Shown here one piece after another: positions 5,374 through 6,018 of a stretch of 45,662 nucleotides of DNA (within the stretch, counting starts at the first letter, position 1; every line of letters starts with the position of its first letter). Under the pieces are notes generated by a model. The model was not told the origin of the DNA, ran no database searches, and saw nothing but the letters and a program-made list of their open reading frames with translations. Origin of the DNA: Candidatus Woesearchaeota archaeon (GTDB taxonomy: Archaea > Nanobdellota > Nanobdellia > SCGC-AAA011-G17 > ARS1403). The translations under genes were made by a program, and so were the position numbers. The DNA is taken from assembly GCA_018302505.1 (NCBI GenBank), contig JAGVZL010000052.1, positions 1 through 45,662 of the forward strand, in the 5' to 3' direction.

Positions 5374-6018
5374 AATATTAATATTCTAAGCATTAAGCAA
5401 GCATTAAGCAAGCAAAACGTAAGAAATGCTTTTAAAAAAGCAAAAGAAGATATAAATAGAGTAGATAATGATATTTTAAGCTTAAAAAATAATATTTTTG
5501 ATGTAAAAAGCAAAATTTCGTCTTTAAAAGAGGAATTAAGTAAAATTATACCTTTTTTAGAGAAAATAAGCACAAAACAACCAGCTTTAGCTGTGGAAAG
5601 TTCCATAGGAAATGAAGGGGTCTTAAGCAAGCAAGCAAGCAAGCAAGCAAGCAAGCACTCGACAATTGAGAGGTTAGAAGAGGCAAAAGACTTACAAGAC
5701 TCAATAAAAGCTCAATTTCAAGCCCTCACAAAGAAGGAGTTCCTCACTTTTTTAACAATTTACCAACTAGAGGAGGAATTAGAGTTTGTAAGGTTTACCG
5801 ATATAGCGAAGCGTCTAAACCTCTCGGAAGGCTGTATAAGGGCATATGTAACTAAATTATTCGAGAAGAATATCCCCATAACAAAGAAAAAGATCAATAA
5901 CCGTATAGTCAACCTCTCACTTTTGCCGGAATTTAGGAAATTAGACCTCAAAAAAGCCCTCACAAATATGTATTATCATCTAGATCCTCTCCAAAGGAAC
6001 CTTTCTGACCAATTCTAA
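5374..6018 (+). CDS. Coiled-coil + winged-helix DNA-binding protein (start uncertain; ORF track starts at GTG 5593)
   Basis: The frame is open from 5374 (after TAA 5371-5373) but has no ATG/GTG/TTG before 5593. The N-terminal part NVRNAFKKAKEDINRVDNDILSLKNNIFDVKSKISSLKEEL parallels the N-terminus of ORF 6404. The C-terminal part LTKKEFLTFLTIYQLEEE..FTDIAKRLNLSEGCIRAYVTKL is wHTH-like. Confidence 0.45.
   Translation, partial: NINILSIKQALSKQNVRNAFKKAKEDINRVDNDILSLKNNIFDVKSKISSLKEELSKIIPFLEKISTKQPALAVESSIGNEGVLSKQASKQASKHSTIERLEEAKDLQDSIKAQFQALTKKEFLTFLTIYQLEEELEFVRFTDIAKRLNLSEGCIRAYVTKLFEKNIPITKKKINNRIVNLSLLPEFRKLDLKKALTNMYYHLDPLQRNLSDQF
5392..5413. repeat. 11-bp tandem duplication ATTAAGCAAGC x2
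   Basis: Read directly: 5392-5402 and 5403-5413 are identical. Confidence 0.9.
5625..5656. repeat. Tetranucleotide microsatellite (AAGC)8
   Basis: Eight perfect AAGC units counted from the sequence. They translate as SKQASKQASK inside the wHTH ORF. Confidence 0.95.

Follow-up and report, generated by a model that had tools for sequence, protein, structure and literature searches.

A frame-breaking (AAGC)n tract in the linker-coding DNA of an origin-proximal winged-helix gene of a DPANN archaeon

The question raised by this locus is whether an (AAGC)8 tract inside an archaeal gene can turn that gene ON and OFF. SSR-driven switching of this kind is textbook biology of host-adapted bacteria, and the tetranucleotide contingency genes of Haemophilus influenzae and Neisseria include mod with (AGTC/AGCC)n, lic1A with (CAAT)n and hgp with (CCAA)n. 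Phase-variable loci of archaea were described in a 2025 review as still to be charted (PMC11868660), and a 2025 preprint mentions studies of contingency loci in archaea. The tract lies in the window, that is, the whole stretch of 45,662 nucleotides of a Candidatus Woesearchaeota archaeon analysed here, where a sequence-only reading had taken it for a candidate slipped-strand phase switch. This interpretation was partly supported by the alleles, proteins and related genomes described below.

The tract, its gene and the encoded protein

Read directly, positions 5625-5656 consist of eight perfect AAGC units; TRF called the tract at 5625-5657 (8.2 copies, 100% match), and the translation in the open frame is SKQASKQASK, so that sequence, TRF and translation all confirmed what had first been noticed. 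All perfect repeats with a period of 1-9 were recorded in the whole genome that holds the window (868,772 bp in 58 contigs, 31% GC, about 86% complete), and (AAGC)8 was found to be the lone long microsatellite, the runners-up being a tetranucleotide of 4 units, a dinucleotide of 5 units and a homopolymer of 10 nt. The 16-mer (AAGC)4, AAGCAAGCAAGCAAGC, had no second occurrence in the whole genome. Since nothing comparable is present in these 869 kb, chance is ruled out as the source of the tract. The coordinates of the tract and of the other features are collected in Table 1.

Table 1. Positions of the features discussed, in the window unless a contig is named.
Feature	Position	Strand	Basis or remark
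Gene frame	open from 5374, stop 6016-6018	+	sequence, translation
Putative TATA-like promoter element AATAAAATATTAATATT	5369..5385	+	conserved directly 5' of the array in L006-L012 and L041
Array remnant, 11-bp unit TTAAGCAAGCA	5386..5415	+	TRF 5388-5414, 2.5 copies
Deletion junction	5414..5416	+	between TTAAGCAA (array) and TTAAGGAA (codons 8-10)
Retained coiled-coil part, residues 11-62 of 210 aa	5416..5571	+	AlphaFold2 helix 6-62, pLDDT ~90
Annotated start GTG	5593..5595	+	public annotation, 141-aa product P0088
Candidate ORB GTTCCATAGGAAATGAAGGGGTC, translated (S)SIGNEGV	5600..5622	+	codon invariance, Pyrococcus ORB match
Microsatellite with flanks, TT(AAGC)8ACTCG	5623..5661	+	tract itself 5625-5656
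MarR-like winged HTH, residues 116-180	5731..5925	+	AlphaFold2; absent from 7-unit products
Window-start box AAGTTCCAAACGAAATTAGAGGGGGAGGGT with AT-rich stretch	62-91		same box type as the cdc6-proximal boxes
cdc6-proximal boxes AGTTCTAAAGGAAATAGAGGTGTT and AGTTCTATAGGAAGTTAAGGTGGGGGGGT	C49:117-219		upstream of cdc6

The AlphaFold2 model agrees with the earlier placement of the tract in a linker between a coiled coil and a winged helix. Its low-confidence segment, residues 63-93, includes the tract-coded residues 82-93 and is the part coded by the box and the repeat. The best Foldseek matches were MarR/MepR regulators (E = 1e-4 to 1e-3), with TM values of only 0.3-0.5. The HTH matches in Pfam were weak and all under the curated cut-offs, sequence and profile searches of the PDB gave weak matches only (E ≥ 0.01), and the sole Rfam match fell below the gathering score and indicated no family. 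The N-terminal coiled coil, a separate segment, is probably what mediates dimerisation. The 192-aa coiled-coil/wHTH gene next to it was considered as a paralogue of the studied gene and dropped, the BLASTP comparison being not significant.

The sequence-only reading had also remarked that the frame open from 5374 holds no start codon before GTG 5593. The frame is as described, with GTG 5593 as its first ATG, GTG or TTG, and the cause was found to be a 54/65-bp deletion particular to the window's assembly. At least 45 other contigs encode a 210-aa form from an ATG that the window has deleted, and the numerous 200-214-aa homologues in MAGs of Nanoarchaeota/Woesearchaeota type (DPANN) all start with MVENDP... 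or similar. The syntenic block around the gene, composed of ArgRS, a 150-aa gene, a 56-aa histone-fold gene (opposite strand), the studied gene, the 192-aa gene and a tyrosine recombinase, recurs on contigs from other samples. Over the studied gene these contigs equal the window save for one segment missing from the window, which comprises part of the upstream array, the ATG and codons 1-10. In alignments A1 and A4, against L006-L009 and L049, the deletion measured 65 bp relative to alleles with three copies of the array unit and 54 bp relative to those with two. The near-repeats TTAAGCAA and TTAAGGAA are a plausible slippage substrate for this start deletion. The N-terminal peptide MVENDPLFKE is encoded nowhere in the whole genome, and the public annotation starts at GTG 5593 because the ATG and codons 1-10 are deleted; this GTG is probably not the natural start. 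Most probably the window carries a null allele or one crippled at its N-terminus, and the start deletion may also be an assembly artefact.

The 11-bp tandem repeat, which had been placed at the 5' end of the gene, is real and proved to be the remnant of a promoter/leader array upstream of the ATG. In intact alleles the array runs on through TTAAGCACTCG and TTAAGCACTCAAA to the ATG. The number of TTAAGCAAGCA copies is 2 or 3 in otherwise identical contigs, and the array is accordingly 54 or 65 nt long.

Seven and eight units in natural populations

Exactly 8 units were counted in nine sequences (the window, L006-L009, L040, L053, L054 and L057). The N-terminal 90 residues were then compared with a collection of 5.8 billion proteins under a length filter that excludes full-length relatives. 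This search for truncated products returned P0084, a protein of 95 aa ending in ...SKQASKQASTRQLRG*, which is the exact product expected from the frameshift at 7 units. The contig that encodes it, L049, matches the 8-unit contig L007 at 100% identity over 450 nt, minus one AAGC. Altogether, four distinct 95-aa products (P0084-P0087) were found, spread over 8 contigs and at least 4 samples, and (AAGC)7 was verified in the DNA of L049-L052 (samples ERZ27254726, ERZ27254729, ERZ27254732 and ERZ27254759). The in-frame SKQASKQASKH form of 210 aa was found on at least 37 contigs, some of them from the study series of the OFF alleles themselves (ERZ27254763 and ERZ27254842). The OFF share is about 17% of contigs, and OFF alleles are the assembled consensus in several samples; about 380 nt of their would-be winged-helix coding DNA are otherwise unchanged. 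Unit number thus varies between 7 and 8 in identical flanks, a change that is not a multiple of 3, and the loss of one unit puts the DNA-binding half out of frame, as had been anticipated, leaving a 95-aa product without the winged helix. Frame-breaking, slippage-type length variation is therefore demonstrated in natural populations.

Four backgrounds were seen for the 7-unit alleles (combinations of L7/T7 with N35/D35), with an upstream array of 2 or 3 units. The SNPs at codons 7 and 35 show all four combinations between themselves and so fail the four-gamete test; an argument for recurrent slippage from that test was dropped, since two ordinary SNPs fail it as well. Recombination or chimeric metagenome contigs could explain the presence of 7-unit alleles on four backgrounds. 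Among the alleles recovered only 7 and 8 units were seen, with no 6-unit or 9-unit allele, and every OFF contig comes from a single study series (ERZ272547xx). The OFF contigs could represent one or few local null lineages and not frequent switching.

A second case was found in a sister lineage (91% protein identity), in which the tract is AAGC(AAGCGAGC)4. Relative to L048, one 8-nt AAGCGAGC unit is missing in two contigs (P0035 and P0099, L047), which shifts the frame; in both the frame reaches a TGA just past the tract, and their gene call used TGA=W. Two independent out-of-frame events have thus taken place at the same tract. In the family-wide profile search for truncated products, clear OFF alleles were confined to the two lineages with long perfect tracts, and among the products recovered none from interrupted tracts (SKQASKQAIKH and others) was truncated, all being full length. 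Internal stops reported for two further genomes, G074 and G086, turned out to be alignment edges, both genes being intact.

Ways of rescuing the window allele or the OFF alleles were considered and rejected. No in-frame ATG that could serve as an internal restart or alternative start occurs before residue 195, and GTG 5593 has no SD-like context. A role of the box's GGGGTC as an internal Shine-Dalgarno/start signal was rejected too, there being no lineage in which a start codon comes after it.

As a separate observation, the three kinds of null allele seen at this locus (7 units, the 8-nt loss and the start deletion) would also fit a dispensable gene decaying at repeats.

The embedded box, the repeats and the origin of replication

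Directly before the tract lies a sequence that resembles an origin recognition box (ORB). In relatives from metagenomes and GTDB genomes, every lineage has (G/C)TTCCAnnGGAAATRARGGGGTY 5' of its repeat. The codons TCC, GGA, AAT and GGG of the peptide motif S-x-G-N-x-G were each invariant in 16/16 CDS with protein identities of 35-100%, and 2-6 synonymous codons occur at other invariant residues, located in the winged helix, of the same 16 CDS. In G114 (L073) the box DNA is read in another frame, giving VPQEMKGS and not STGNEGV, and the ORF of 207 aa stays open. Because the codons are frozen in all 16 CDS and G114 translates the box in another frame, the constraint acts on DNA: at the box it is the DNA that is conserved, not the peptide.

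The Pyrococcus furiosus ORB1 and ORB2 oligonucleotides, whose reverse complements are GTTCCAGTGGAAATGAAACTCTGGGGGG and CTCCAGTGGAAATGAAACTCTGGGGG, respectively, bind Cdc6/Orc1, and TTCC and GAA were named as the conserved ORB core (PMC1904270). Between GTTCCATAGGAAATGAAGGGGTC and the ORB1 reverse complement, 15 of the first 17 positions are identical, and GTTCCATAGGAAATGAAGGGGTC contains the TTCC...GGAA dyad core and the G-string, as do experimentally bound ORBs. The whole 13-nt mini-ORB is common to P. furiosus and some relatives. The full box pattern has one occurrence in the genome. Positions 5600-5622 therefore have the sequence of a canonical archaeal ORB and are a candidate Orc1/Cdc6 site.

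A short-period repeat follows the box in every lineage, with a unit that differs between lineages. Tetranucleotide forms are TTAAGCA(AGCA)n in the window lineage and (AACA)n, (ATTC/TTCA)4-5, (CGAG)7, (TCAC)6 and (CAAA)5 elsewhere, and 12-nt units such as GGTTATTCACTN or CACATATGCAGA also occur. The linker peptides that they encode are unrelated (SKQA, NKQT, YSFIHSF, RASE, SLTH, QTNK, GYSL and HMQT). These repeats resemble the DNA in front of the gene. In the 130-160 nt upstream of each ATG, units are spaced 10-12 bp apart and have a lineage-specific core, as in the coding repeat. The array of the window lineage is TTAAGCAAGCA x2-3, TTAAGCACTCG, TTAAGCACTCA, and its coding tract reads TTAAGC(AAGC)7ACTCG; the motif at the ends of the coding tract is the motif of the upstream array, the tract being flanked by the two halves of a unit of the upstream type (TTAAGCA...CTCG). 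When 6-mers were compared, the 63 nt after the box surpassed every other segment of the same CDS in the number shared with the region upstream of their own gene, at 15/15 loci of a first set and at 20/31 loci of a second set. The sharing of 6-mers was block-diagonal by lineage. In some lineages (L066, L087), this comparison found no motif common to tract and upstream array. The repeat probably began as a set of DNA sites, with the frameshift-prone microsatellite as a secondary development, and the protein motif SxGNEGV with its SKQA repeats is really a translated DNA signal.

The gene itself lies close to the putative origin. The only orc1/cdc6 gene of the genome is located at the start of contig C49, behind an AT-rich stretch and two similar boxes. 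Because the window contig also begins with an AT-rich stretch and a similar box, the two contigs probably meet at oriC, which would place the origin about 5.5 kb from the gene. An attempt to locate the origin by the GC skew of the 45-kb contig was uninformative, as gene orientation dominates the skew. A protein profile detected the gene in 127 of the order's 151 genomes and in 85/91 of those at least 90% complete, nearly always as a single copy. Its distance from cdc6 was 4.6-15 kb in 12/12 genomes with long contigs (at least 7 families), usually in divergent orientation. ORBs of the same type lie directly upstream of cdc6 in several genomes, most clearly in G093, G029 and G001. Being near-universal in the order and close to cdc6, the gene is a core, origin-proximal gene and no member of an accessory island. 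No publication connecting DPANN genomes with ORBs or replication origins came up in literature searches.

Several known systems are comparable in part. In the lambda O gene, the iterons of ori-lambda lie in the part that codes for an interdomain linker. The Sulfolobus WhiP protein, a winged-helix initiator encoded near oriC3, binds direct repeats within its own ORF (PMC3607249). As in WhiP and lambda O, a winged-helix gene beside an origin has repeats in its own linker-coding sequence, which tolerates them. The likeness shown is one of architecture, not a sequence relationship to WhiP/Cdt1 or O; the present locus differs in its MarR-like fold with a coiled coil and in tolerating null alleles, and an initiator role is not supported. 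An intragenic ORB cluster bound by Cdc6/Orc1 is found in the Pyrococcus dp1 gene, which encodes the PolD small subunit (PMC1904270). Here too an ORB-type box lies inside a coding gene, a few kb from oriC and cdc6, and is conserved in related species, with a box sequence that is nearly the same (GTTCCAGTGGAAATGAA versus GTTCCATAGGAAATGAA). The present locus differs in having a single candidate box in a small winged-helix gene; this box is frozen across the whole order and is followed by lineage-specific tandem repeats, unlike in dp1. In Neisseria meningitidis, NadR is a MarR-type repressor whose operators flank a phase-variable TAAA tract upstream of the nadA promoter (PMC2791445). Common to both systems are a protein of MarR-like type and a repeat near the promoter whose copy number varies (at the present locus 2 or 3 copies of the 11-bp unit), with operators, putative here, lying in that region as well. 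At the present locus the unit is 11 bp long, so that helical phase is preserved, and the regulator's own gene also carries a coding tract.

Switch, hotspot or plain linker

The reading that appears fairly probable overall is that of a hypermutable ON/OFF microsatellite in the dual-use linker DNA of an origin-proximal winged-helix gene. With 8 units the frame is kept and encodes the 210-aa protein with coiled coil and MarR-like winged helix, and a misalignment by one unit in replication, presumably by slippage, would leave 7 units and shift the frame after codon 89. A stop six codons later then gives the predicted 95-aa coiled-coil stub, devoid of the DNA-binding domain. Because 7-unit and 8-unit states both occur naturally, the tract may act as a mutational ON/OFF switch, which would presumably be reversible. 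The linker DNA would serve a dual use, holding an Orc1/Cdc6 box and then iteron-like repeats with the motif of the promoter/leader array. In the window lineage, these repeats (TTAAGCA + AGCA...) would have been homogenised into a perfect tetranucleotide run that became a switch secondarily. The winged-helix protein may bind the repeats in its own promoter/leader and ORF, with autoregulation and/or a modulated Orc1/Cdc6 occupancy of the embedded box as the predicted outcome.

A bolder form of this proposal, that of a true archaeal contingency locus in which a protein whose coding DNA docks both Orc1/Cdc6 and the protein itself is turned OFF stochastically and reversibly, can be put forward only tentatively. 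Like the contingency genes of Haemophilus and Neisseria, the locus has a perfect 4-nt repeat within an ORF, the loss of one unit truncates the product, and alleles that differ by one unit coexist in natural populations; as in phasevarions, a switched regulator could have pleiotropic downstream effects. Unlike in those genes, the host is a DPANN archaeon and not a host-adapted bacterium, the tract lies mid-gene in an interdomain linker instead of close to the 5' end, what would be switched is a DNA-binding protein encoded near the origin and not a surface structure or methyltransferase, and the repeat appears derived from protein-binding DNA repeats. Classical contingency organisms have many such loci, unlike the single one per genome found here.

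That the SKQA stretch is a plain peptide linker of fixed length under protein-level selection, the 7-unit contigs being sequencing or assembly artefacts, is a view to which very little credence can be given. It would account for the recurrence of [SN]KQ[AT] repeats in relatives, for length differences between species in multiples of 12 nt and for the 8 units in all six assemblies examined first. Nevertheless, the peptides at this place differ radically (SKQA and NKQT compared with YSFIHSF, GYSL, RASE or SLTH), and the DNA repeat still matches the upstream array, next to a box that G114 reads in another frame. Seven units are, moreover, present in 8 contigs with four sequence variants from at least 4 samples, and the same k141 pipeline, whose k-mers span the 32-nt tract, gives 8 units elsewhere. 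Given that these 7-unit contigs exist, a fixed linker with artefactual variants is unlikely.

A more serious possibility, still short of probable, is that the tract is a mutational hotspot only, arisen from iteron-like binding repeats beside an ORB and producing ordinary loss-of-function mutations with no reversible or selected switching. The occurrence of different kinds of null allele at one locus, the restriction of OFF alleles to one study series, the presence of a single SSR locus in the genome and the fact that deletions were the sole changes seen all speak for it. The lineages with 12-nt units do so as well, as they keep the same architecture with zero frameshift potential, so that the DNA motif, not the ability to switch, would be what is conserved. 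This explanation is set against the sizeable OFF share and its status as assembled consensus, the untouched winged-helix coding sequence downstream in OFF alleles, the four haplotype backgrounds on which these alleles are found and the near-complete genomes, 85/91 with an intact gene, which argue against free decay.

If the tract is an ON/OFF switch, as we favour, both of its states are already represented in public metagenomes of an uncultured DPANN archaeon, and the switched gene would be an unusual one, found next to oriC and orc1/cdc6 almost universally in its order. In the bolder form, that of a true contingency locus, a population of this archaeon would be a mixture of cells with and without this replication-origin accessory regulator, and related species with (CGAG)7, (TCAC)6, (AACA)8 or (ATTC)5 at the same spot would switch likewise. 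As a switch, the locus would concretely connect heterogeneity within populations with the replication initiator and with a small DNA-binding protein that is still uncharacterised.

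Reading frames across the ORB and tandem tracts in related lineages

The origin recognition box (ORB) embedded in the coiled-coil/winged-helix gene was found at ~1711 on the reverse strand of locus L073, from a related genome (G114:C54), where it is translated in another frame, giving VPQEMKGS as against STGNEGV. The 207-aa ORF of this locus is open despite the frame change, because four extra nucleotides (TAGT) 3' of the ORB are accompanied by a compensating shift upstream. This frame change is a natural demonstration that the ORB is conserved at the DNA level. Long perfect tetranucleotide runs were also present at the equivalent position in other species, namely (CGAG)7 in L069 (G088), (TCAC)6 in L072 and L091 (G055) and (AACA)8 in L012. 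These tracts are candidates for the frameshift behavior of the (AAGC)8 gene, and no truncated alleles of the three types of loci were found among the few contigs existing. For the frameshifted sister-lineage allele L047 (ERZ27254767 k141_2678598), the public call P0035 (168 aa) is translatable only with TGA read as tryptophan. Under the standard code this allele presents a stop directly after the tract, and the 168-aa protein is therefore an artefact of the caller's choice of code.

Repeats and spacers around the winged-helix genes

Among the contigs L006–L009, L040 and L050–L054, otherwise identical, the 11-bp unit of the upstream array was found in two or three copies, its number varying independently of the length of the coding tract; the 11-bp step preserves helical phase. 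In the 8-unit contig L054, both winged-helix genes were identical to those of the other contigs, but the intergenic DNA separating them diverged sharply at ~330–520 nt downstream of the stop region of the gene under study (alignment columns 970–1160), where dozens of substitutions accompanied a gap of 52 bp. Such a pattern points either to a tract of recombination or to a spacer that is hypervariable. Further downstream, the 19-bp duplication stops immediately 5' of ATG 7357.

Features of the window and of contig C49 of the same genome
Feature	Position	Remarks
AT-rich stretch	1-60	Contig start
ORB-like AAGTTCCAAACGAAATTAGAGGGGGAGGGT	62-91	Directly after AT-rich stretch
150-aa protein gene	4577-5029	Directly upstream of gene under study
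11-bp array, unit TTAAGCAAGCA	5386-5415	
CpG-rich repeats and palindromes, CGACAAGTCGT x2.5, GACGTCGTAGACGTCTACGAC	6290-6353	Upstream of 192-aa gene
192-aa coiled-coil/winged-helix gene	6404-6982	Neighbor of gene under study
Perfect 19-bp tandem duplication, TAAGTGTATATTTGTTAGT x2.2	7316-7356	Located by TRF
Two ORB-like boxes	C49:117-140, C49:191-219	Similar to window 62-91

Contig ends and the origin-proximal block

The contig of the window probably begins within oriC. The start of C49 (C49:1-280, L056) presents an AT-rich stretch and two boxes resembling the ORB-like element of the window, followed by orc1/cdc6, the sole copy in this genome, and the two contig ends probably adjoin at the origin. 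The 150-aa protein, which had no Pfam match, ends in ...AKDYIG*, and the ORFs upstream of the gene family in distant lineages end in ...AEEYIG*; its gene lies directly upstream of the winged-helix family in these lineages as well, and the protein is a second uncharacterized component of the origin-proximal block.
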